Shown: in pieces, positions 3,432 through 33,374 of the stretch
Numbering within the stretch: position 1 is the stretch's first letter
How the letters are laid out: each line of letters begins with the position of its first letter
The notes under the pieces: generated by a model
Database searches by the model: none
The model's input: the letters and a program-made list of their open reading frames with translations, nothing else
What the model was told of the DNA's origin: nothing
Assembly (NCBI GenBank): GCA_947648495.1
Contig: CANSOA010000002.1
Coordinates: 166,250 to 230,249 of the forward strand
DNA from: an uncultured Clostridium sp.
Lineage (GTDB): Bacteria > Bacillota > Clostridia > TANB77 > CAG-508
DNA length: 64,000 nt
Reading direction: 5' to 3'
Made by a program: the position numbers and the translations under genes

Positions 3432-4937
3432 ATGAAATTAAACAAACTTATCTCTTCTGTTGATGTAAAAAATATGATCGGTGATTTAGGTTTAGAGATT
3501 ACCAACATTCATTCCGACTCAAGAAAAATAAAAGAAGGAGGGCTTTTTGTTGCCATTAATGGATTTTCAAAAAATGGTGTTGAATTTATTCCTTCTGCCA
3601 TTGAAAACGGTGCAAAAGCAATCATTGTAGAGCCAGATGTGGACATCTACTCTCTTAATATTGGCTCAGAAATTCCTATTATTTCTGTTCAAAATACAAG
3701 AAAAGCTCTTGCACAAATTGCTTGTGAATTTTATGAACATCCCTCTAAAAAATTAAAACTAATTGGTGTAACTGGAACCAAAGGTAAAACAACGACTACT
3801 TTTATGATAAAATCCATATTAGAGACACATGGTTTTAAAGTAGGATTAATTGGAAGTATCGCTATCTATATAAACGGAGAAAAAATCGAAGATACGGACA
3901 GGACAACTCCTGAAAGTATTGAAATTCAAAAATTTTTAAGCCAAATGGTGGAACAAAAAACAGATGTCGCTATTGTTGAAGTTTCTTCTCAAGCTACCAA
4001 ACTTGACCGTGTAACTGGCTGTGACTTTGATATTGGGGTTTTTACAAATCTTAGCGAAGACCACATTAGCCCCAAAGAGCATCCTAATATGGAAGATTAT
4101 TTTAACTGCAAATTAGAACTTTTAAAAATGGCAAAATATGCTATTATCAATAACGATGATGAAAAACTTAGAACCATTCCAAATCTGTTGCCAAATAAGC
4201 CAATCAAAACCTTTAGCATTGATAATCTTTCGGATATTCAAGCAAATAGCAAGGATGTTGTTATCACCGATTCATATATTGATTTTACAATTGATTACAA
4301 TCATAAGAAAGAAAGAATTGAAGCCACAATTCCGGGAAAATTCAGTGTGTATAATAGCTTAGGAGCTATCGCAGTCGCTTCCTATTTTGACGTTCCAGCA
4401 GAAGAAATCCGCACAAGCTTAAAAGATTTACGTGTACTTGGTAGAAGTGAGCTTGTACCAAATAAATTAGGACTTTCCATTATGATTGATTATGCTCATA
4501 CTCCTTCTAGTTTGGAAAGCATTTTAACCGCTGTCAATTCGTACGCAAAAGGGCGTGTTATTTGTGCTTGGGGCGTTGGCGGTGATCGTGATAGTGCTAA
4601 AAGACCAATTATGGGTGAGATTTCTGGTCGTTTAGCTGATTTTACAGTTCTTATGTCCGATCAAGTTCGCACAGAAGCTCCTTTAAAGATATTAAAAGAA
4701 ATTGAAGTGGGCATTATACCAACTGGAAAACCGTATAAAATTATTGTTGATAGAACAGAAGGAATCCGTTATGCTATTTCAATTGCAAAACCTGATGATA
4801 TTATTGTTATTCCCGGTCTTGGACATGATTTATATTTGGAGAAAAATGGTGTGAAATATCCATATGATGAACGTAAAATAATTAGCAAGTTAATTGATGA
4901 AATGATTGAAAATGGAGAAAAACAATTGTTAAAGTAA
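3432..4937 (+). CDS. murE: UDP-N-acetylmuramoyl-L-alanyl-D-glutamate--2,6-diaminopimelate ligase (MurE)
   Basis: Mur ligase P-loop GVTGTKGKTTTT and full-length MurE-like domain order. Start at MKLNKLISS with an AAAGGA ribosome-binding site. Confidence 0.85.
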   Translation: MKLNKLISSVDVKNMIGDLGLEITNIHSDSRKIKEGGLFVAINGFSKNGVEFIPSAIENGAKAIIVEPDVDIYSLNIGSEIPIISVQNTRKALAQIACEFYEHPSKKLKLIGVTGTKGKTTTTFMIKSILETHGFKVGLIGSIAIYINGEKIEDTDRTTPESIEIQKFLSQMVEQKTDVAIVEVSSQATKLDRVTGCDFDIGVFTNLSEDHISPKEHPNMEDYFNCKLELLKMAKYAIINNDDEKLRTIPNLLPNKPIKTFSIDNLSDIQANSKDVVITDSYIDFTIDYNHKKERIEATIPGKFSVYNSLGAIAVASYFDVPAEEIRTSLKDLRVLGRSELVPNKLGLSIMIDYAHTPSSLESILTAVNSYAKGRVICAWGVGGDRDSAKRPIMGEISGRLADFTVLMSDQVRTEAPLKILKEIEVGIIPTGKPYKIIVDRTEGIRYAISIAKPDDIIVIPGLGHDLYLEKNGVKYPYDERKIISKLIDEMIENGEKQLLK

Positions 4938-4979
4938 AAAATACCCTCTTTTTATTATTTGGGTAAGCGAACTTAAAAT

Positions 4980-5020
4980 AAACCTCATCTCTGCTTTAGA
5001 GCGTTGAGATGAGGTTTATT
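4980..5020. terminator. bidirectional intrinsic terminator between convergent murE and the pdaA-like gene
   Basis: AAACCTCATCTC-n14-GAGATGAGGTTT: a perfect 12-bp stem followed by a T-rich tract. Confidence 0.6.
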
Positions 5021-5115
5021 ATTTATGATGGCAATCACATAACTGTGACACCTTGTTTTATTAATTTAATTATAAGATTTTTTACCAATTTTTCAATTAC
5101 TTTTGTTCCACACTT

Positions 5116-5902
5116 CTACTTCTCAAATTCGTCTAATGATTTAAATTCATATCCCATGTCTTTTGCTTCTTTTATCAAGCTATCTAACATGGTTAAATTA
5201 TCTTCAGATGTGCTGTGTAATAAAATAATGGCTCCATTGTGAAGATTGTCTAACACTTTCTTTTTACCATAATCGCTTCTTCCTTGTTTGGATTGGTCCC
5301 AATCGTCATAGGCATTGGACCATAATACACTTGTATAGCCTAATGTTTCTACAATATTTGCTGTTCTTTCACTGAATTCTCCTCTTGGTGGTCTAAAATA
5401 CGTCATTTCGTAACCTGTGACTTCATATACACTATTATGCAATTTCATGATTTCTTCTTTGATTTCATCATCAGAAAGTCCCGGCAAACAGGCATGATTA
5501 ACCGTATGATTTCCAACAACATTTCCATTTTGAATCATTTGCTTGACTAAATCAGTTGCTGTATTGACGTAATGTGCTGTGATGAAAAAAGTCGCTGATA
5601 CATCATTTTCTTTTAGAACTTTTAGAATATCTTCTGTATAACCTGCTTCATATCCTGCATCAAACGTCAGGTAAACATACTTTTTTTCTGGATTTCCCAT
5701 TGCAATTCCGATTAAATTTTTCAATTACTTTTAAACTTTCACTATCTAAAACAGCTTGCTGATGATTTTCACCTCTTCTAAAGCCCCAAGCTAATGTTTC
5801 ATTGCTGAGTTCAGAACCTGCTTGTGAAGCAATTGAAAATTGCATAATACTAACCACTAATATTAAACAAATAAAACTATATCTTATCAGTCTGTCTTTC
5901 AT
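5116..5902 (-). pseudogene. pdaA: delta-lactam-biosynthetic polysaccharide deacetylase (PdaA-like, NodB domain), split by a frameshift in a T5/A5 run at 5716-5720 as assembled
   Basis: The signal peptide plus ...ETLAWGFRRGENHQQAVLDSESLKVIEKF (frame of 5660..5902) continues as NLIGIAMGNPEKKYVYLTFDAGYEAGYT... (frame of 5116..5724). Together they reconstitute a PdaA-like protein. AAAGGAGG ribosome-binding site before 5902. Confidence 0.65.
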
Positions 5903-5973
5903 TTTTTTCCTCCTTTGCTTATAAGATATTCTGTTTTATTTAAAATATGAAAAAATAGTAAGCAAAAAACTTA

Positions 5974-6135
5974 CTATTCTTCCTTTTTTTTCTTCTCATT
6001 TTCTTTTTCTCTATAAAACTGAGCTATTAGCTCGTCTAATTTTAAACTTAGTTTGTAGATTTCCTCTTTATCTTTTCCTTCTTCTATGCTTTTGTTTAAT
6101 TTATCTCTCAATTTACAAATTTCATCATTTATCAT
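5974..6135 (-). CDS. Spo0E-like sporulation regulatory protein (53 aa), not in the ORF track
   Basis: Hand translation gives MINDEICKLRDKLNKSIEEGKDKEEIYKLSLKLDELIAQFYREKENEKKKKEE. The (S)xxLDELI motif and size fit the Spo0E family. GGAGTG ribosome-binding site 7 nt upstream; a hairpin terminator (TAGTAAG/CTTACTA) follows. Confidence 0.45.
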   Translation of the reverse strand: MINDEICKLRDKLNKSIEEGKDKEEIYKLSLKLDELIAQFYREKENEKKKKEE

Positions 6136-6322
6136 AACTCATCACTCCTTTTTTAGAATTAGGAAATTTTCTCGTAAGTTACAATGCAAAAAAATCATAA
6201 ATTATATAAACCAACGATAGAATTTTTAATTCTCTATTTACTATAATTTCAAAATACCATATTTATTTGTCAATGTCAATAAAAAAACAACAAATAACGT
6301 ACTTTTTCATAGACTTTTTTCA

Positions 6323-7123
6323 TCATTTTGAACGATGTCCTCCCTTATCTATGTATTTTTTGCGTTTTTTCAACAGCATTCCCCCAAATACTACAAAAAT
6401 CGCAAGTGACAAAATCTGTGAAATTCTGAAATTTCCCAACATTAAACTATCGATTCTTACACCTTCTATCAACATTCGAATTCCAGCATATAAAAACAAA
6501 TAAAAATAGCAAATTTCTCCTTTAAATTTTCTATTTTTTTGTAAAATTCTTAAAATTACAAAAATAAACATTGTCGCAATTGATTCATATAAAAAGGCTG
6601 GATGGACTTCTTTGTATCCTTTTATGGTATGAATTCCCATTCTAAATATATTATTGGTTTGGGTTCCATAGGCTTCTTGATTAAAAAAATTCCCCCATCT
6701 TCCAATGGATTGCGCCAATGCTACAAAAGGAGCTATATAATCAAAAAAATCTAAAAAATTAACTTTGTATTTTTGACATCTTTTTATAATTACTAAACCA
6801 CCTGCAATTAATCCTCCATAAATCGCCAAACCACCCTTTCTTATATTAAATATGTCATTTAATGATATATGACCATTTTTCCATTGAAATGCAACATAGT
6901 AAATCCTAGCGCCGATTAAGCCTATAAATACGGCTATCATCAGACTTTCAAACACAAAATCAAAATGAATTCCAAATTTTTCCTTTGACTGATGACACAA
7001 AAAAAGGGATAAAAGAATTCCTCCAACAATACAAATCGCATAATAATAGATATTAATCCCAAATAATTCAAATGCAATGGGCTGAATCAAAAAAGATAAT
7101 TTTAGAGCTGGAAAATTAACCAT
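6323..7123 (-). CDS. lgt: prolipoprotein diacylglyceryl transferase
   Basis: GRWGNFFNQE signature, a 7-TM profile and an AAAGGAGG ribosome-binding site. Confidence 0.85.
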   Translation of the reverse strand: MVNFPALKLSFLIQPIAFELFGINIYYYAICIVGGILLSLFLCHQSKEKFGIHFDFVFESLMIAVFIGLIGARIYYVAFQWKNGHISLNDIFNIRKGGLAIYGGLIAGGLVIIKRCQKYKVNFLDFFDYIAPFVALAQSIGRWGNFFNQEAYGTQTNNIFRMGIHTIKGYKEVHPAFLYESIATMFIFVILRILQKNRKFKGEICYFYLFLYAGIRMLIEGVRIDSLMLGNFRISQILSLAIFVVFGGMLLKKRKKYIDKGGHRSK

Positions 7124-7135
7124 TTTTCCTCCTTT

Positions 7136-7162
7136 GTAGGGGCGATTGATAATCGCCCCTAC
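7136..7162. repeat. intercistronic palindrome GTAGGGGCGATT-gat-AATCGCCCCTAC (copy 1 of 3)
   Basis: Perfect 12-bp inverted repeat between the stop of the M16 gene and the lgt ribosome-binding site. Related copies at 29988-30013 and 31519-31544. Confidence 0.6.
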
Positions 7163-7163
7163 G

Positions 7164-8429
7164 TTATTTTGATTTTACAATAGAAACAACCTTTTTGTCT
7201 TTTTGGAATACCATATTTAATATTTGCATCACATATTCTTTGTCTAATCCCTTAAATTCTTCAAAATAATCTAATGGATTAATAGCTCGGAAATAATTTT
7301 GAACAAAACTTGTGGCAATATTTCCTGCATCATTATAACTTTTGACAAACTCACCATACAATTTTTTCTTAATTCGCTCAAATTCTTCATCTTGAATTCC
7401 GTTTTTCTTTAAATCTTCAATTCCCTCTTCCAGTTTAGAAATAACATCATTATACTCTTGACTTTGCCCTTGAATTAGAACATGTGAATAAATTTTGCTA
7501 TTTTCATAAATAAAAGTTGGCTCAGATTGCAAAATTCCTTCTTCATATAAACTTTGATACAATTTTGTACTATCTCCAATTAAAATATTAAAAATAATAT
7601 CAAGTGCTAAATCTTTCTTAATTTGATTTTCGCAAAGATTTGTATCTTTATAACCAATCATAAAAAGTGGCATGCTAATGTTCATTTCTGCTTCCATTTT
7701 GTCTTTTACGATTTCTTCTGGCTCGTCTTCATAAATCCTTTTTACAGTTTCTTTGGCATTTTCCAAAGTCATTCTTTTTTCGATTTCTTGGATTACTTTT
7801 TCTGGCTCAAAATCCCCACAAACTACAATTGCCATTTTGTCTGGTCGATAAAATGCTTGGTAAGCCTCGTATAGTTTTTCTTTAGTGATTTCGGCAATGG
7901 TTTCTTTGGTTCCTGCAACATCAATGTTAATTGGATTTTTATGATACATGGCTTTCATGGCATTCATGTAAAGTTTCCAATCTGGATAATCGTCATACAT
8001 CATAATCTCTTGTTCGATAATCCCACGTTCTTTTTCGACGTTTTCATCTGTAAAATAGGGATTTTGTACATAATTCATAAATTCGTCTAAGCCTTCCCAA
8101 AATTTATTATTGTTATCTTCAAAAAGATAGGCTGTGTGATTATTGGTCGTATAGGCATTGGCGTTAACTCCCATGCTGGATAAGACATCTAAACTGTTAG
8201 TACCATTTTCTTGTTCAAAAAGTTTGTGTTCCATATAATGCGCAATTCCGTCTGGAACTGTAATTTCCTTATTTCCTACCATAAATTTATGATCAATAGA
8301 ACCATAATTAACGCCCCAAATAATGTATTTTTTTTGTGTCTTTTTGGGGATAACAATCACTTTCAATCCATTGGATAATTTTTCAATATATATTTTTTCT
8401 TGAATTTTATCATTTTCTATAATTTGCAT
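7164..8429 (-). CDS. M16 family zinc peptidase (active subunit, HxxEH)
   Basis: Inverted zinc-binding motif HYMEHKLFE. Start at MQIIENDK with GAGGGGG upstream; its start overlaps the upstream stop (TGAAATG), indicating translational coupling. Confidence 0.75.
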   Translation of the reverse strand: MQIIENDKIQEKIYIEKLSNGLKVIVIPKKTQKKYIIWGVNYGSIDHKFMVGNKEITVPDGIAHYMEHKLFEQENGTNSLDVLSSMGVNANAYTTNNHTAYLFEDNNNKFWEGLDEFMNYVQNPYFTDENVEKERGIIEQEIMMYDDYPDWKLYMNAMKAMYHKNPINIDVAGTKETIAEITKEKLYEAYQAFYRPDKMAIVVCGDFEPEKVIQEIEKRMTLENAKETVKRIYEDEPEEIVKDKMEAEMNISMPLFMIGYKDTNLCENQIKKDLALDIIFNILIGDSTKLYQSLYEEGILQSEPTFIYENSKIYSHVLIQGQSQEYNDVISKLEEGIEDLKKNGIQDEEFERIKKKLYGEFVKSYNDAGNIATSFVQNYFRAINPLDYFEEFKGLDKEYVMQILNMVFQKDKKVVSIVKSK

Positions 8430-8430
8430 T

Positions 8431-9721
8431 TCATTTTTCCCCCTCATCTCTTAAAAAATAAATTGTATGAATGTTAATACTATTTGCAATTTCTATGATG
8501 TCTTCTCTTGTGATGGATTCAATTATTTTGGCATATTCTTCAATTGTTACATTGGTTTTTGAAATTTCTTGCCCGATATAATAAATGATGCCTGTGTCTT
8601 GTTCTGTTTCGATGGCAACAATTCCAGATTTAATATATTCTTTGGCAGAGGTGATGTCTTCATCTGAAAATTCACCTTTTTTCATAATCTCAAGTTGGTC
8701 TTTGATTAGACCGACTGCCTTCTCAAAATTTGGTATTTCAATTCCCGCTCGAATAAAAATATTGGCTTTTTGTTTGACATACATACTTTTAATCGAATAC
8801 GCCAAACTTTCTTTTTCCCTTACATTTTGGAATAGCAATGAATTGGCTCCGCTTCCTAAAATCATGTTATACAGCAATGTTTTAAATTGCACATTTTCCA
8901 CATTTGAATTTACATCCATTCCAAGTACTAATTTTCCTTGTGTAACATCCATTTTTTCTATAATTTCAGCAACGTTTTCCACATTTTGTTTTCCTTCTGT
9001 GAATTCATTATTTAAAACATAATTCTCAATTCTTGGACGCAATTTTTGGATATTTTTATCGTTTAAAATGATATTTTTTACATTTTTTTCTTCAAAATCA
9101 CCTGATACAAACAAATCAATTTTGCAATTTTGAATTAAATTTTCATAATGCTGGGTCAAATTATCCACATTGATATTTTCTAAATCTTCTAAATAACCAT
9201 ATTTATATAATCCAAAACCGCTCATCACCATACATTTTGGAAATGCAGGTTTCGTAGGCATACAAATCTTTATCATCGATTTTGCTTTCTATGATTTTTG
9301 CCAAATTTTCTTTCTCGATTTTCAAATATTCTTCTTTAAATTTACCGTTTTCCAATAGTGGATTGCACATAATATCAAGCAAAATATGAATGGTATTTTG
9401 CAAAATTTCCTCTTCATTTAAAGCAAATTTGTCATTAATCGAATCAATGTAAAAACGCAAAATTTGATTGTCACCATATTTATCTATTCCGCATTCAAAT
9501 GAGGCTCCATATAGGTTTTCTAAAGCGCAACTCAAATCCAATTGCGTTTTTAAATTAGCGGTTCCACGTCTTAACATACTAACAATTAAAGCATTTTTTG
9601 TAACATTTTCACGTGTCAAAGGTACTGTGATAATGCCTGCTATCATATTGGTTTTAAACAAATTTGTCTTTATCAAATGTGCTTTAATCCCCTGTTTTAT
9701 CTCAAAATCTTTTTTCTCCAT
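8431..9721 (-). pseudogene. M16 family peptidase-like protein (no HxxEH, likely inactive partner), frameshift in an A4/T4 run near 9214-9217 as assembled
   Basis: The N-terminal part ...CISKMYGDERF (9203..9721) continues as GLYKYGYLEDLENI... (8431..9276) after removing one T. Combined length about 430 aa. Confidence 0.6.
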
Positions 9722-29064: not shown

Positions 29065-29967
29065 TTAAATTCTAAATTTTTTTACAAATGTTTCTTTTTC
29101 TTGCCAACCTTCTCGTACTTTCACCCATATTTTTAGGTTTACTTTTTCGCCCAACATTTTTTCTATATCATAACGACTCGATGTCGAAATTCTCTTTAGC
29201 ATACTTCCGCCTTTACCAATAATAATCCCTTTGTGTGACTCTTTATTGGTATAAATAACACTATCAATATTAAAAATTTTCTCATTTTTCATAGTTTTTC
29301 CCGTTTTAAATTTCTCAAGCTCTACATAAATTCCATGTGGCACTTCTTCGTCTAAAAATCGTAGCGCCTTCTCACGAATGATTTCCTCAATCATTTGTCT
29401 TGTGGTTTGGTCCGTATATTCGTCTTCACTGTAGTATTTGGGTCCATTTGGCAACAATTTTATAATTTCTTCCACTAACTTGTCTATTCCTTCGCCAGAT
29501 ACTGCACAAATAGGAACAACTGCTTCAAAAGCATATTCATCACTATAAATTTTAATTAAATTTAATAACGTTTCTTTTTCCACTAAATCAATTTTATTAA
29601 TCGCTAAAATGCATTTTTTATTTGCATTTTTCAATTTTTCCAAAATTCGGCAATCGCCCCTACCAATTTCTTTGGAAGTTGCCTCTATTAAAAACACAGC
29701 TACATCAACCTCTTCCAAAGTTGAAAAAGCAGTCTCAATCATTGTTTCGCCAAGTTTCGTTCTAGGTTTGTGAATACCGGGTGTATCCGTTATAATCATT
29801 TGATAATTTTCATCATTTAAAATTGCCTTAATAGCAGTTCTCGTAGTTTGTGGTTTGTTGGCAATAATGGCAATTTTTTCTTTCATTAAAGAATTGAGCA
29901 AAGTTGATTTTCCCACATTTGTTCTTCCAACAAATGACACAAAACCAGATTTAAAATTTTCGTTCAT
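29065..29967 (-). CDS. era: GTPase Era
   Basis: G1 GRTNVGKST, G3 DTPG and the KH domain. Start at MNENFKSGFVSF. Confidence 0.85.
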   Translation of the reverse strand: MNENFKSGFVSFVGRTNVGKSTLLNSLMKEKIAIIANKPQTTRTAIKAILNDENYQMIITDTPGIHKPRTKLGETMIETAFSTLEEVDVAVFLIEATSKEIGRGDCRILEKLKNANKKCILAINKIDLVEKETLLNLIKIYSDEYAFEAVVPICAVSGEGIDKLVEEIIKLLPNGPKYYSEDEYTDQTTRQMIEEIIREKALRFLDEEVPHGIYVELEKFKTGKTMKNEKIFNIDSVIYTNKESHKGIIIGKGGSMLKRISTSSRYDIEKMLGEKVNLKIWVKVREGWQEKETFVKKFRI

Positions 29968-29987
29968 ATTTATTTCCTTTTCATTTT

Positions 29988-30013
29988 GTAGGGGCAATTA
30001 TTCATCGCCCCTA
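29988..30013. repeat. intercistronic hairpin GTAGGGGCAAT-n5-ATCGCCCCTAT (copy 2 of 3)
   Basis: Same family as 7136-7162, placed between the stop of the upstream gene and the era ribosome-binding site. Confidence 0.5.
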
Positions 30014-30021
30014 TTTATACA

Positions 30022-31104
30022 TTATTCCAATATCACCTGTGCCTCAATTGGGCAAATATTAATCCAAGTATTTCCATCATTAACATTGATTTTATTTCCA
30101 TTTTCGTCAACATACTGTGTTTGTCCACCAACATATTGTTTTTTACAAGTAATGCGAATTGCCTTTCCATTTGTAATATAATAACCATCTGCATTTGTAA
30201 AATTATTCAAATCTTGTCTGCCTTTGCCTTCGCCATCATCTAATGTTGTATTTTTGATAAATGAGACAATAATATTTTTCGTTGTTACATCTTCTTTTGT
30301 TACTTCATCAATTTGCTTTTTGCCTTTGGAATAACGTATATATCTTCCTGTTTCGGCATTGTATACATATTTTACAGTATGATTTGTGCCATATGGTATT
30401 GTTATCGTATTTGCTACTTTTGCATTTGGTCCTTCTAATTTTACTTCTTCTGTCACATAATTTAGCACACTTTCTTTGTTTGAAGTTGTTTTGTATTTTT
30501 GCTTTTTGCAAATTTCCTGAATACTTTTTATGCTTGTATAAGCATTATGTGGCGCTTTTTTATTCTTTTCTCTCCAATATAAAGAACTTGACGTTCTAGC
30601 TTTTCCCGTGTCATAAATCTGACCATTAATATCTGCTACATTGAAATTTTTTATGTAAGATTCGGCTTGGGGGCTTTGCCCTAAATGCGCATAAATTGCA
30701 TCATTTTCTAAAGCATAATCAATAAAATAATGTCTAGCACTTCGGATTGGTCCAACTGTGACATCCTCATTTGTTACATCAACATTTTTGAACAATGCCA
30801 TTAGCCTTGTTTCTCCGCCTTCTACAATGATTTCATAGACAAGATACGCTTTATTTAAAGCAGATTGTGGCTGTGCATTAACATTATTATCAATCATAAA
30901 CGCAATCGGTCTACTGCTTCCGCTAAAAATTTTGATATTCTTCTTTTCTTCCGTAGTTGGCTCTTCTATTTGTCTTTCCTGTTCTTCAACTGCAATTTCG
31001 TCCGCTTTATGTGTTTTATTGTAAATTTTTATGCCTAAAAGCGCTACCAATCCAATAAGAATAATAACTGCAATTCCTATCCATAATTTCATTTTTTTAT
31101 CCAT
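30022..31104 (-). CDS. DUF3048 (YerB-like) membrane-anchored protein
   Basis: Signal anchor followed by the DUF3048-type domain. It sits where cdd lies in Bacillus. Confidence 0.55.
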   Translation of the reverse strand: MDKKMKLWIGIAVIILIGLVALLGIKIYNKTHKADEIAVEEQERQIEEPTTEEKKNIKIFSGSSRPIAFMIDNNVNAQPQSALNKAYLVYEIIVEGGETRLMALFKNVDVTNEDVTVGPIRSARHYFIDYALENDAIYAHLGQSPQAESYIKNFNVADINGQIYDTGKARTSSSLYWREKNKKAPHNAYTSIKSIQEICKKQKYKTTSNKESVLNYVTEEVKLEGPNAKVANTITIPYGTNHTVKYVYNAETGRYIRYSKGKKQIDEVTKEDVTTKNIIVSFIKNTTLDDGEGKGRQDLNNFTNADGYYITNGKAIRITCKKQYVGGQTQYVDENGNKINVNDGNTWINICPIEAQVILE

Positions 31105-31116
31105 ATCTAAAATCCC

Positions 31117-31497
31117 CTAAATTAATTTATTTACTATTTTCGGTAATAACAAAAAAATTCCTACCATAACTGATACAATTGATACAATCAACACAGCTCC
31201 GCTTGCAATATCTTTTGCCAGTTTAATTTTTTCATTGTATTCTTGGCTGTATAAATCGAGCATGACTTCAATCGCTGTATTCAAAAATTCTGCCAATAAC
31301 ACAACACCAATGGTTATGAAAACCACAGCAAATTCAAGATAATTTAATTCAAAAACAATACCTAAAATAATTGCTAATATGGTGCATACTAATTCAATTT
31401 TCAGGCTTCGTTCTGTTTGAAAAGCATATTTCATACCATCTAAACTGTGATAAAATGCTTCCCAAAAATTCTTATTTTTCCATCTTTTTTGTTTCAT
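31117..31497 (-). CDS. dgkA: diacylglycerol/undecaprenol kinase DgkA
   Basis: 126 aa with 3 TM helices and the E..N..IE motif. Confidence 0.8.
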   Translation of the reverse strand: MKQKRWKNKNFWEAFYHSLDGMKYAFQTERSLKIELVCTILAIILGIVFELNYLEFAVVFITIGVVLLAEFLNTAIEVMLDLYSQEYNEKIKLAKDIASGAVLIVSIVSVMVGIFLLLPKIVNKLI

Positions 31498-31518
31498 AGT
31501 TTGTCCTTTTATAATTTT

Positions 31519-31544
31519 GTAGAGGCGATTAGCTATCGCCCATA
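31519..31544. repeat. intercistronic hairpin GTAGAGGCGATT-agct-ATCGCCCATAT (copy 3 of 3, degenerate)
   Basis: Lies between the ybeY stop and the dgkA ribosome-binding site. Core GGCGAT/ATCGCC is conserved. Confidence 0.45.
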
Positions 31545-31681
31545 TCTATTTTATTGTATATTATTTTTTGCGGTTCATAATTGATTGACCGTTTTTATAT
31601 TATCTTTGACGTGTCATGGTTTATCGACGTTTACATATTTGCATTCTCATCTGTTTTAGCACGAGCGATTAATTACCGCTC

Positions 31682-32146
31682 CTACAGTCTGGTGATGTTT
31701 AATTTTTGCAAAATATTTTCTTCTTTTTGTCTCATCCTTTTTTTTTCGTCTTCATTCATGTGGTCTTCACCCATTAAATGATAAAATCCGTGAACTAACA
31801 TGTACGCTAATTCTCTTTCAAAACTGTGCCCATATTCTTCAGCTTGCTGTTTTACCCTGTCGATAGAAATCACTACATCGCCTAAAGCCTCTTGTTCGGT
31901 TATGGTTCGTATCTCCTCTTTTTCAAACATGGGAAAAGATAGCACGTCCGTTTCTTGATTCAAGTTTCGATATTCATTGTTTATCTGTTTTATAATTTCT
32001 GGCGTTGTTAAAATTATGCTTACATATAAATTTGTATTTTGTAAATTCTCTACTTCAAAACATTGATTCATAACTTGATTTATCAATTCATGATAATCCT
32101 CTTTTTCTTCTATTTCTCTATATTCTATGTCAACAATTTGTTTCAT
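31682..32146 (-). CDS. ybeY: endoribonuclease YbeY
   Basis: HGFYHLMGEDH zinc-binding motif. Confidence 0.85.
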   Translation of the reverse strand: MKQIVDIEYREIEEKEDYHELINQVMNQCFEVENLQNTNLYVSIILTTPEIIKQINNEYRNLNQETDVLSFPMFEKEEIRTITEQEALGDVVISIDRVKQQAEEYGHSFERELAYMLVHGFYHLMGEDHMNEDEKKRMRQKEENILQKLNITRL

Positions 32147-32192
32147 CTTTCCTCGTTTCTAAATTGGGTCGATAAAAAGTACCACCCTTACA

Positions 32193-33374
32193 TTATTTTT
32201 TGGTGTATTTTATATTTTCAATAGTTCGGCAAGTATTCTTGAACTGTTTCATAGCACCAAATTCAACTAATTTGTGTTTATAATACATGCGAATTTGTTT
32301 TGCTTTTGGTCCATTGTCTTTTATATCATGCAACTCTTTCTTCAAAACTGTAATTTCTCTTTCATCATCCGATTTTGCATTTTCATAATCTTTCCAAAAT
32401 TTCTTATAAACTTCTCTTTCTTCTTGATTTTCCCAATAAACTTTGGTTGATAATAATTTTTCATTATAGTTTTGAATGATTTTCAATAATGCCCTATAAA
32501 CTTCTTCTTTCTTATTTTCTTGCTTGGTTGAAAGAATAAGATTTCGTGCATCTCTCAATAATTTTTGATAGCATTGTTCTGCTGCAACTAATGGCAAACT
32601 GTGAGTAAATAACGTTCTGCTCATACCAAGCAAAATCATATTTTTTTCTAAAAAATCTTTTTCGTCTAATTTGCCAATGTCAAAAGTATCAAGCTCATCA
32701 TAATCATTTTTGATTTTCTCAAAATCTTTGAAATCATTTTCTAATTTTAATGGCAAAATTTCTTTGATATATTCATCCAATGTTAAAAAGATATTTTTAT
32801 ATAATTCAATCTGATTAAAATTTTTCTCTTTTATCCCATCAGCTAATTTTACAGAATAATTTTTCAAAATTGATTTATAAAGTTCATCGCTTTTTTCAAT
32901 ATACAAATTCCTAAATTTCTTGATGATTTTTTCTTTTCCAGCGCTCAAAACACTTTCATAATCCAAATCTAGCAAAAATTTCTGCTTTTTGGCTTTATAT
33001 TCTGTATAATCTTTTTCTTTCAAATGAACTACATTATAATAATTTGACAATGCATTTTGTTCAAAAGTAGTGCTATTCCCATTTTTTACTTTTTTATAAA
33101 CCGAATCCATAATGTACTTATCAATAGATTCCAAATATAACGTATAACTTTCTTCATAACGATTTCTCACACTTTCTTCTTTGGCACTATTGTCTTTATG
33201 GATTGCCTTATAATTTTCAAATGCTTTTATAACAGCGTTTCTTTTTAGGTTGATTATCATCCCGTTGAAGCCTACTTTTGTAGGGATTAGTAATTTGGTT
33301 AACGTATTTGATATTTTGTTAAAAAAGGTCGTGTCATTCGCAAGTATTTTTAAACTTCTTTCTTCCATACTCAA
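32193..33374 (-). CDS. hypothetical protein (393 aa) in the position usually occupied by phoH/yqfF
   Basis: Long Lys/Glu-rich ORF with no HD or PhoH motifs seen. Confidence 0.4.
   Translation of the reverse strand: MSMEERSLKILANDTTFFNKISNTLTKLLIPTKVGFNGMIINLKRNAVIKAFENYKAIHKDNSAKEESVRNRYEESYTLYLESIDKYIMDSVYKKVKNGNSTTFEQNALSNYYNVVHLKEKDYTEYKAKKQKFLLDLDYESVLSAGKEKIIKKFRNLYIEKSDELYKSILKNYSVKLADGIKEKNFNQIELYKNIFLTLDEYIKEILPLKLENDFKDFEKIKNDYDELDTFDIGKLDEKDFLEKNMILLGMSRTLFTHSLPLVAAEQCYQKLLRDARNLILSTKQENKKEEVYRALLKIIQNYNEKLLSTKVYWENQEEREVYKKFWKDYENAKSDDEREITVLKKELHDIKDNGPKAKQIRMYYKHKLVEFGAMKQFKNTCRTIENIKYTKK

Follow-up and report, generated by a model that had tools for sequence, protein, structure and literature searches.

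The stretch of DNA analyzed here (the window: 64,000 nucleotides of contig CANSOA010000002.1 from an uncultured Clostridium sp., positions 166,250 to 230,249) has a GC content of about 30% and carries two relevant groups of genes, all on the minus strand: an M16 peptidase gene followed by lgt, and an operon composed of a gene for a 393-amino-acid (aa) protein, ybeY, dgkA, a DUF3048 gene, and era. The names M16 peptidase, lgt, DUF3048, era, ybeY, and dgkA were confirmed with Pfam. An earlier note on this DNA had described a short GC-rich hairpin present at three junctions (M16 to lgt, DUF3048 to era, and ybeY to dgkA), in each case between a stop codon and the ribosome-binding site of the next gene. 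The three related minus-strand hairpins are all real (S1, S2, and S3; Table 1), with S2 extending to 30014 and S3 to 31545, and two further decayed copies had been missed (31659-31685, S4, and 32166-32191), so that the 64-kb window holds four copies and one remnant of a sister subfamily. The comparison with repetitive extragenic palindromes (REPs) made in that note was correct and can be narrowed. The hairpins are very probably variously decayed copies of a GTAG-type double-foot REP, a mobile palindrome, rather than a conserved regulatory signal. Judged by sequence, their class is the kind tied to subclass 2.4 of the tyrosine transposases associated with REPs (RAYTs, or TnpA_REP) of Quentin et al. 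2018. The REP/RAYT kind itself is already known; here it is represented by a family in a low-GC Clostridium-like lineage.

S1, S2, and S3 share the same 27-nt geometry and align without gaps. The RNA of S1 is predicted to fold into a perfect 12-bp stem closed by a 3-nt loop (-21.3 kcal/mol, z = -4.6); after the GTAG head come 8 bp (GGGCGATT/AATCGCCC) and the loop of 3 nt, in keeping with the basal stem and loop by which REPs are recognized. The predicted folds of S2 and S3 have energies of -16.5 and -9.5 kcal/mol, respectively, and retain 6 to 10 pairs including wobbles. In each of the three folds the downstream Shine-Dalgarno sequence is unpaired. The GTAG head is found on both strands in S1, on the plus strand in S2 and S3, and on the minus strand in S4, and the combination of a 5′ GT[AG]G with a 3′ C[TC]AC is present in S1 to S3 and in the family pattern. 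S4 retains a 7-bp stem through one compensatory change from G:C to A:T and one G·T pair. Together, S3 and S4 form an outward-facing pair (GTAG ... CTAC) separated by 113 nt; folding of the interval from S4 to S3 gave only two local stems, not one long REPIN-like hairpin. The G·U pairs of S2 and S3 had been considered as a sign of selection on the sense RNA, an idea that was dropped when a pair-by-pair count showed that, in both copies, each strand has a single wobble.

Table 1. REP copies in the window and the genes that surround them
Feature	Positions	Strand	Sequence	Consensus positions matched or location
S1, intact double-foot REP	7136-7162	minus	GTAGGGGCGATT-ATC-AATCGCCCCTAC, in full GTAGGGGCGATTATCAATCGCCCCTAC	22/22
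S2, slightly degenerate REP	29988-30014	minus	ATAGGGGCGATGAATAATTGCCCCTAC	20/22
S3, degenerate REP	31519-31545	minus	ATATGGGCGATAGCTAATCGCCTCTAC	19/22
S4, decayed REP	31659-31685	minus	GTAGGAGCGGTAATTAATCGCTCGTGC	17/22
Fifth copy, a decayed remnant from a sister REP subfamily	32166-32191	minus	GTAAGGGTGGTACTTTTTATCGACCC	between the 393-aa gene and ybeY
M16 peptidase gene (7164-8447) and lgt (6323-7123), flanking S1	6323-8447	minus		context
Operon 393-aa gene/ybeY/dgkA/DUF3048/era	29065-33374	minus		context

Resemblance among these elements exceeds what the composition of the window predicts. The half-site TAGGGGCGAT occurs 7 times in the window with at most one mismatch, against 0.83 expected, and a scan of all window 27-mers with the consensus (22 fixed positions) found four with at least 17 matches, while Markov simulations gave about 0.13 27-mers per window with at least 15. 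At 29653, TAGGGGCGAT is a solitary half-site in the coding sequence of era. Searching the whole window with the Rfam 15 covariance models yielded no match at the gathering score; at E ≤ 1 the region 29900-32250 gave nothing and S1 gave chance matches below threshold only, and a tRNA scan revealed nothing relevant.

All window copies are intergenic, and REPs or REP remnants occupy three of the four spacers of the operon. They lie close to stop codons. S1 starts 1 nt past the M16 stop (7164-7166), with the ATG of lgt (7123) 12 nt beyond it; S2 has its start 7 nt past the DUF3048 stop and its end 20 nt before the ATG of era; and the 32166-32191 remnant has its start 1 nt past the stop of the 393-aa gene and its end 19 nt before the ATG of ybeY. 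The three hairpins are where the earlier note placed them, between the confirmed gene pairs. S1 and S2 come right after stops, but S3, whose end is 21 nt before the ATG of dgkA, is 137 nt away from the ybeY stop. The GTAG of S4, starting at -3 relative to that stop, contributes the TAG codon of ybeY (31682-31684), and it is therefore S4, not S3, that is the copy at the ybeY stop.

We scanned one genome per species (GTDB) with the pattern TAKGGGCGAT-N5-ATYGCCYCTAC and found the palindrome GTAGGGGCGATY-NNN-RATCGCCCCTAC at 114 loci in 88 assemblies from many phyla. The consensus is a near-perfect 27-nt palindrome, GTAG-GGGCGATY-NNN-RATCGCCC-CTAC. Its hosts include many Clostridia/Oscillospiraceae, Acetobacterium, Dehalococcoidia and Anaerolineae (Chloroflexota) with GC contents up to 69%, Omnitrophota, Bacteroidaceae, Gracilibacteria and Absconditabacterales (Patescibacteria), Legionellaceae, Methylococcaceae, Rhodothermales, and Oscillatoria, the listed phyla including Proteobacteria and Cyanobacteria. 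The largest number of loci in one genome was nine strict matches, in a metagenome-assembled genome (MAG) of Omnitrophota. Chance matches among many perfect hairpins were suspected at first, a suspicion contradicted by features that the scan pattern did not force. A G precedes the TAG in 96 of 115 elements, restoring the GTAG head, and the innermost stem pair (12:16) is of the Watson-Crick type in 106 of 115 (T:A 70, C:G 30, G:C 6). That this pair is maintained through three pair types indicates that pairing itself is under selection. The outer flanks of the 115 elements are a 5′ Y and a 3′ R.

Between genomes, the common part is only the core of about 27 nt; within single genomes, this core is embedded in longer, genome-specific units resembling miniature inverted-repeat transposable elements (MITEs) or in tandem arrays. 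In three loci (L027:6887-6988, L033:6553-6650, and L104:1578-1679) it sits at the apex of a 98-nt palindrome with the ends AAACAGTAATTTAGCG...CGCTAAATTACTGTTT, and in two others (L010:2462-2631 and L049:6825-6992) inside a MITE-like unit that measures about 170 nt and has inverted ends. Both the long palindrome and the ~170-nt units are genome-specific MITE/REPIN-like composites around one core. In L034, L078, and L093, the core is part of composite units that include a terminator. One Oscillospiraceae MAG and some Bacteroidaceae MAGs contain tandem REP arrays (L103:1650-1890, L025:4696-4894, and L065:4966-5342), whose periods are 33 nt and about 85 nt. The exact REP pattern had no match in 2.9 million viral contigs, where a composition-matched control with reversed arms also had none and is thus uninformative as a control; the element does not seem to travel with phages. 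A full-text literature search with the arm sequences returned unrelated primers only.

The gene context of the 114 loci was determined from a crude call of open reading frames (ORFs). The elements lie between co-directional genes in 54 cases, convergent genes in 21, and divergent genes in 3, and inside a called ORF in 22, the ORFs concerned being mostly short or doubtful. In co-directional pairs, the upstream stop lies a median of 47 nt away (first quartile, 22 nt); several elements overlap the stop, and some donate the stop codon of the upstream gene. The distance to the next start varies from 2 to 642 nt (median, 76), with no fixed spacing. Both the window copies and the 114 loci thus show the extragenic, stop-proximal placement, in co-directional or convergent contexts, that is typical of REPs. 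The earlier note had taken equal occurrence inside genes, with no positional bias, as the outcome that would speak against its proposal. The copies are strongly extragenic, so that this outcome was not found, but the bias is the ordinary one of REPs and is not tied to ribosome-binding sites. Likewise, the arrangement of a tail followed by a ribosome-binding site holds in the window and is not a family trait, as only 12 of 201 strand-wise tails begin with AAA. “CCCCUACAAA then ribosome-binding site” is a property of the short A-rich spacers of this window, not of the element. On the sense strand, the tails of S1, S2, and S3 read ACAAAGG, ACAAAAU, and ACAAAAU, with no U-tract, and a terminator scan found none on the minus strand, which bears out, for the sense strand, the view that these hairpins are not terminators.

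We next considered the enzyme that might mobilize such elements. The loci (8 kb each) were probed with sequences of IS608 TnpA and E. coli RayT, used as leads only, and the matches were retested with Pfam and NCBIfam. No IS200-type match was obtained across the loci, either with the IS608 TnpA probe or in the profile tests. The RayT-like probe matched in 5 of the 114 (L008, L037, L047, L074, and L095), compared with approximately 0.3 expected in a rough estimate that assumes about one such gene per 3-Mb genome, and in four of the five a RAYT-like gene or fragment lies within 100 nt of the hairpin. L037 and L047 score above the cutoff of 23 for PF01797 (Y1_Tnp; 29.0 and 27.9 bits) and L008 just below it. 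Tested against NCBIfam, these three each matched NF047646 (REP-associated tyrosine transposase) best, with 60 to 63 bits, which is under the 80-bit equivalog cutoff; these enzymes are therefore relatives of E. coli RayT, not its equivalogs. The three proteins are only 34 to 42% identical to one another.

In L037, a Clostridia MAG with 34% GC, a perfect REP is located 30 nt upstream of the RAYT-like gene and two variant hairpins lie downstream, and L047 has two REP copies, downstream of the gene only; genes accompanied by the same REP, as expected of a REPtron, thus exist in these other genomes. L008:303-785 (minus strand, Omnitrophota) has a REP inserted in frame within the RAYT-like gene (...NHLHGIIIIDMPVGAINNRPYGKLSQ...YIINNP), as described for subclass 2.4. 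The signature of that subclass is recognizable in L037 (NHIH, WQ, YIQNN) and L008 (NHLH, WQ, YIINNP), while L047 departs from it (DHFH, YIEENP), and the WQ...(E/D)H...R residues are kept in the RAYT-like proteins found. In L008, the in-frame REP comes directly after the HuH motif (NHLHGIIIIDMPVGAINNRPYG), a live example of the in-gene insertions reported for the subclass. L095 contains a RAYT remnant (5875-6181) whose N-terminal (aa 5 to 40) and C-terminal (aa 94 to 151) pieces abut a REP at 6048-6072, the HuH-containing middle being absent; it may be the product of a REP-mediated deletion. L074 has two to three tandem RAYT gene fragments (4133-5364) about 2 kb from its REP.

We then compared the orthologous spacers of relatives, given with the identity of their DUF3048 protein to that of the window except for L132 to L136, which were fetched through lgt. 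Neither the DUF3048-era nor the ybeY-dgkA spacer has a matching hairpin in eight metagenomic loci with 55 to 69% identity (L115 to L122). Six of these cover DUF3048-era with spacers of 6 to 17 nt, except for L120, whose spacer of about 130 nt is also without a hairpin. Both sites are empty in L129 (85%; 10-nt DUF3048-era spacer) and L130 (73%). In contrast, L124 and L125 (81%) have at both sites a different REP, GTAGGGGCAGGGTTCCA(T/C)CCCTGCCC, 1 to 2 nt past the stop, and L123 (84%) has ATAGGGGCACGGGAAACCGTGCTC between DUF3048 and era and an empty ybeY-dgkA spacer. Between M16 and lgt, the 29-nt spacer of L132 and L133 (lgt, 76%) is empty, whereas L134 to L136 (lgt, 74%) carry three REPs there (L134:2355-2500), the first of which provides the TAG stop codon of the M16 gene. 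The REPs of L123, L124, and L134 all belong to other GTAGGGG-headed subfamilies. The element that survives as a remnant at 32166-32191 is intact at the same site in relatives, as GTAGGGGTCGATGCCCA(C)ATCGACCC.

Differences extend to strains of the same species. L126 to L128, which encode an identical DUF3048 protein, differ from the window by an indel of 3 nt within the 3′ arm of S2, by a change in the loop of S3, and by two changes in S4. Empty or replaced sites together with strain differences indicate that, within a short time, elements are acquired, exchanged for others, and worn down. Such turnover is the behavior of mobile or selfish DNA and not that of a conserved cis-regulatory hairpin. 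The suggestion in the earlier note of a dedicated processing, stabilizing, or coupling element is not supported by these observations, since the orthologous spacers are empty or hold another subfamily, strains differ by an indel, and spacing to the start codon is not fixed. The 113 nt between S4 and S3 (31546-31658) are nearly identical in the same-species strains and have no counterpart in relatives, whose spacers measure 8 to 121 nt; they could be spacer DNA brought in with the REP pair, or something else.

GTAG-tagged REPs were defined by Di Nocera et al. 2013 (PMC3733652), who reported that they favor co-directional and convergent intergenic regions near 3′ ends and donate TAG stops; the main text of that paper does not mention Firmicutes or Clostridia. 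REPs are searched for as a GT[AG]G located 0 to 2 nt 5′ of the foot of a hairpin with a fully paired basal stem of 7 to 20 nt, a loop of 2 to 5 nt, and at least three G/C at stem positions 1 to 4 (Di Nocera et al. 2013, PMC3733652; Quentin et al. 2018, PMC6006769). Subclass 2.4, which equals group 4 of Bertels, is characterized by NH[IFV]H, WQ, and YIxNNP, was described from “Cyanobacteria, Bacteroidetes and various phyla,” and is associated with double-foot REPs having a 5′ GT[AG]G and a 3′ C[TC]AC, some of which are reported inserted in frame in tnpA_REP (PMC6006769). The same study linked the WQ...(E/D)H...R residues to GTAG recognition, and among the 68 GTAGGGGCG-headed entries of its Table S1 are the double-foot GTAGGGGCAATTCATGAATTGCCCCTAC (Chlorobium) and GTAGGGGCGAAAAATTTTTCGCCCCTAC (Caldilinea) (PMC6006769). 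The REPs of that subclass and the family described here have in common the GTAG/CTAC feet, a stem that starts with GGGGC(G/A), a 12-bp stem with a short loop, extragenic occurrence with multiple copies in other genomes, a neighboring tnpA_REP with NH[IFV]H, WQ, and YIxNNP, and a REP in frame in a transposase gene. They differ in that the GCGAT(T/C) stem with a 3-nt loop is absent from the published table, that the host is a spore-forming Clostridium-like bacterium with about 30% GC, and that no transposase was seen in the available sequence of the source organism.

Other systems are less similar. REP_Sm/SMAG of Stenotrophomonas maltophilia is a 23-nt element made of GTAG, a perfect 8-bp palindrome, and a 3-nt loop, which is cleaved as single-stranded DNA at CT by its own RAYT, the group 3 enzyme TnpA_Sm (PMC8266576). 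Our family shares its extragenic location and the geometry after GTAG (GC-rich perfect 8-bp stem, 3-nt loop), but REP_Sm has a single foot, depends on another RAYT subclass (DH[LF]H, YI[VI]ANP), and is restricted to Xanthomonads and Pseudomonads. The REPs/BIMEs of E. coli, which go with RayT (TnpA_REP group 2), similarly have a GTAG head, follow stops inside or at the ends of operons, and form clusters and inverted pairs; unlike the elements studied here, they are longer and carry an imperfect, bulged stem needed for activity, and their GTAG is unpaired. Effects of E. coli REPs on mRNA stability, attenuation, and termination-proximal translation are documented. In work of Newbury and Higgins in 1987-88, Espeli in 2001, and Liang, Rudd, and Deutscher in 2015, REPs reportedly block 3′ exonucleases, attenuate read-through, and hinder translation termination when located no more than about 15 nt from the stop. 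The subterminal hairpins of IS200/IS605 insertion sequences (IS) are also single-stranded DNA hairpins with a 5′ guide tetranucleotide, handled by a Y1 HUH transposase belonging to the same Pfam family, but they border a transposase gene, with or without tnpB, within an IS of 0.7 to 2 kb, whereas the window copies are solitary 27-mers. Finally, the streptococcal BOX repeats, to which the earlier note also likened the hairpins, and the RUP and SPRITE repeats are small, intergenic, transcribed, hairpin-forming repeats of low-GC Gram-positive bacteria; they are, however, larger modular units or MITE-like units with terminal inverted repeats, and they are not known to have GTAG/CTAC feet or a link to a Y1 transposase.

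By analogy with the known REP/RAYT systems, the hairpins would be non-autonomous and would spread as folded single-stranded DNA processed by a RAYT, a Y1/HUH enzyme encoded by a single-copy gene, here of subclass 2.4, that would recognize a hairpin with its 5′ GTAG guide. The 3′ CTAC foot, complementary to the guide, would supply the C|T cleavage site. Presence or absence and subfamily replacement at orthologous spacers bear only indirectly on whether a subclass 2.4 enzyme would bind and cleave the single-stranded REP. Copies would then persist where they do no harm, sparing genes and Shine-Dalgarno sequences; in a gene-dense operon, such a site would consist of the bases after a stop and before the next Shine-Dalgarno sequence, which would account for the placement that first drew attention to these hairpins. 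Once transcribed in polycistronic mRNAs, the elements are predicted to form hairpins with stabilities of -21 to -9.5 kcal/mol, leaving the Shine-Dalgarno sequence unpaired. As in E. coli, they may act as 3′-exonuclease barriers that stabilize the upstream cistron, weakly attenuate read-through, or slow the terminating ribosome when no more than about 15 nt from the stop, as S1, S2, S4, and the 32166-32191 remnant are. Any such RNA effects would probably be side effects or possible exaptations.

Several points weigh against this interpretation. Data on mechanism come only from enzymes of groups 2 and 3, which bind the folded single strand, require GTAG, and cleave at C|T beside the hairpin (PMC8266576); for subclass 2.4 they are extrapolated. 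The exact GCGAT stem variant is not among the entries of Table S1 of Quentin et al. 2018 (PMC6006769). Neither the 64-kb window nor the fragments fetched from close relatives contain a RAYT gene, and in the source organism, of which 64 kb were read, a cognate transposase and many copies across the genome are putative. Furthermore, the same spacers hold different REP subfamilies in different relatives, a repeated occupancy that could mean that a hairpin is selected at those sites, beyond neutral tolerance.

That last point bears on the main competing explanation, a dedicated, selected intercistronic RNA element that processes or stabilizes the mRNA or tunes translational coupling for lgt, era, and dgkA. 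The sense-strand position of S1 to S3 in operon spacers, 12 to 21 nt before the starts and with free Shine-Dalgarno sequences, would suit such a function, as would the presence of some GTAGGGG-headed hairpin, with differing stems, in the same three spacers of several relatives and the stabilization of upstream mRNA by REPs in E. coli. We nevertheless consider it improbable, because empty sites are found in L129, the closest relative sampled (85%), as well as L130, L132, and the eight distant relatives, and because strains of one species differ there by an indel and substitutions. Moreover, many phyla have the identical sequence in unrelated contexts, where it keeps no fixed distance from a start codon and has no AAA tail, the strand asymmetry of the G·U pairs in S2 and S3 vanishes on close count, and no Rfam family matches.

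Intrinsic termination, whether weakly in the sense operons or of antisense (plus-strand) transcription, is very unlikely. On the plus strand S1 is followed by GTTATTTTGATTTT and S3 was flagged as terminator-like, and T-rich tails occur in 40 of 201 cases in other genomes; these, however, are mostly from AT-rich genomes, where they are expected anyway, and 80% of the family tails have no T-tract, as is true of every window copy on the sense strand. Terminators would also leave unexplained both an invariant 24-nt sequence across phyla and the transposase link. We give still less credence to an operator bound as double-stranded DNA by a dimeric regulator or a nucleoid protein. Although a perfect 27-bp palindrome with a variable center is what such a protein might bind, the elements sit after stops and are rare in divergent, promoter-containing regions compared with convergent ones (3 versus 21), the inner-stem covariation favors intrastrand pairing, and tandem arrays, MITE-like units, and occurrence in phyla without a common regulator of this type all argue otherwise. 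Least credible of all is a chance likeness among ordinary GC-rich hairpins. Hairpins are common, and a palindrome has half as many independent positions as its length implies, yet the window counts (7 versus 0.83, and four 27-mers at 17/22 or more versus about 0.13 at 15/22 or more), the 5′ G that 96 of 115 elements have although the pattern did not impose it, the multi-copy genomes, and the adjacency of RAYT genes in 5 of 114 loci versus about 0.3 expected lead us to regard chance as already refuted.

If the hairpins are mobile REPs, the repeated occupancy of the same spacers by different subfamilies points either to insertion beside existing REPs or stop codons or to a benefit of the hairpin at those places. 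A more speculative idea, which we hold to be possible but rather doubtful, joins two observations: the occurrence of a 27-nt REP letter for letter in at least 10 phyla would reflect a frozen enzyme-hairpin code, and the stop-proximal spacers of this clade (M16-lgt, ybeY-dgkA, and DUF3048-era) would have been refilled repeatedly by different GTAGGGG-headed subfamilies. The recognition code would then be unusually frozen even though the neighboring RAYTs are only 34 to 42% identical, unlike the species-specific coevolution of REPs in Proteobacteria. In addition, either REPs would home to pre-existing REPs or stop-proximal sites, or a hairpin at the junction would be selected as an mRNA stabilizer or translation brake, in which case REPs would be the raw material that continually supplies junction hairpins.

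For annotation, hairpins of this type should be labeled REP elements, not terminators, operon-specific regulators, or leaders of a riboswitch-like type. Nearly all work on REP/RAYT systems has been in Proteobacteria, while the compact double-foot family described here belongs to a low-GC, spore-forming, Clostridium-like lineage in which gain, replacement, and decay are visible at orthologous operon spacers. It therefore offers a tractable case for the choice of targets by RAYTs of subclass 2.4, and it allows one to ask whether expression in Firmicutes, with an RNase J/Y decay machinery unlike that of E. coli, is altered by stop-proximal REPs. The neighborhood of these genes in the window and in relatives (L130 and L132) also includes YqfD, YabP, a SpoIVB-type peptidase, a Spo0E-like protein, SASP, RecO, and YqzL, which points to a lineage of endospore-forming Clostridia with a GC content of about 30%.

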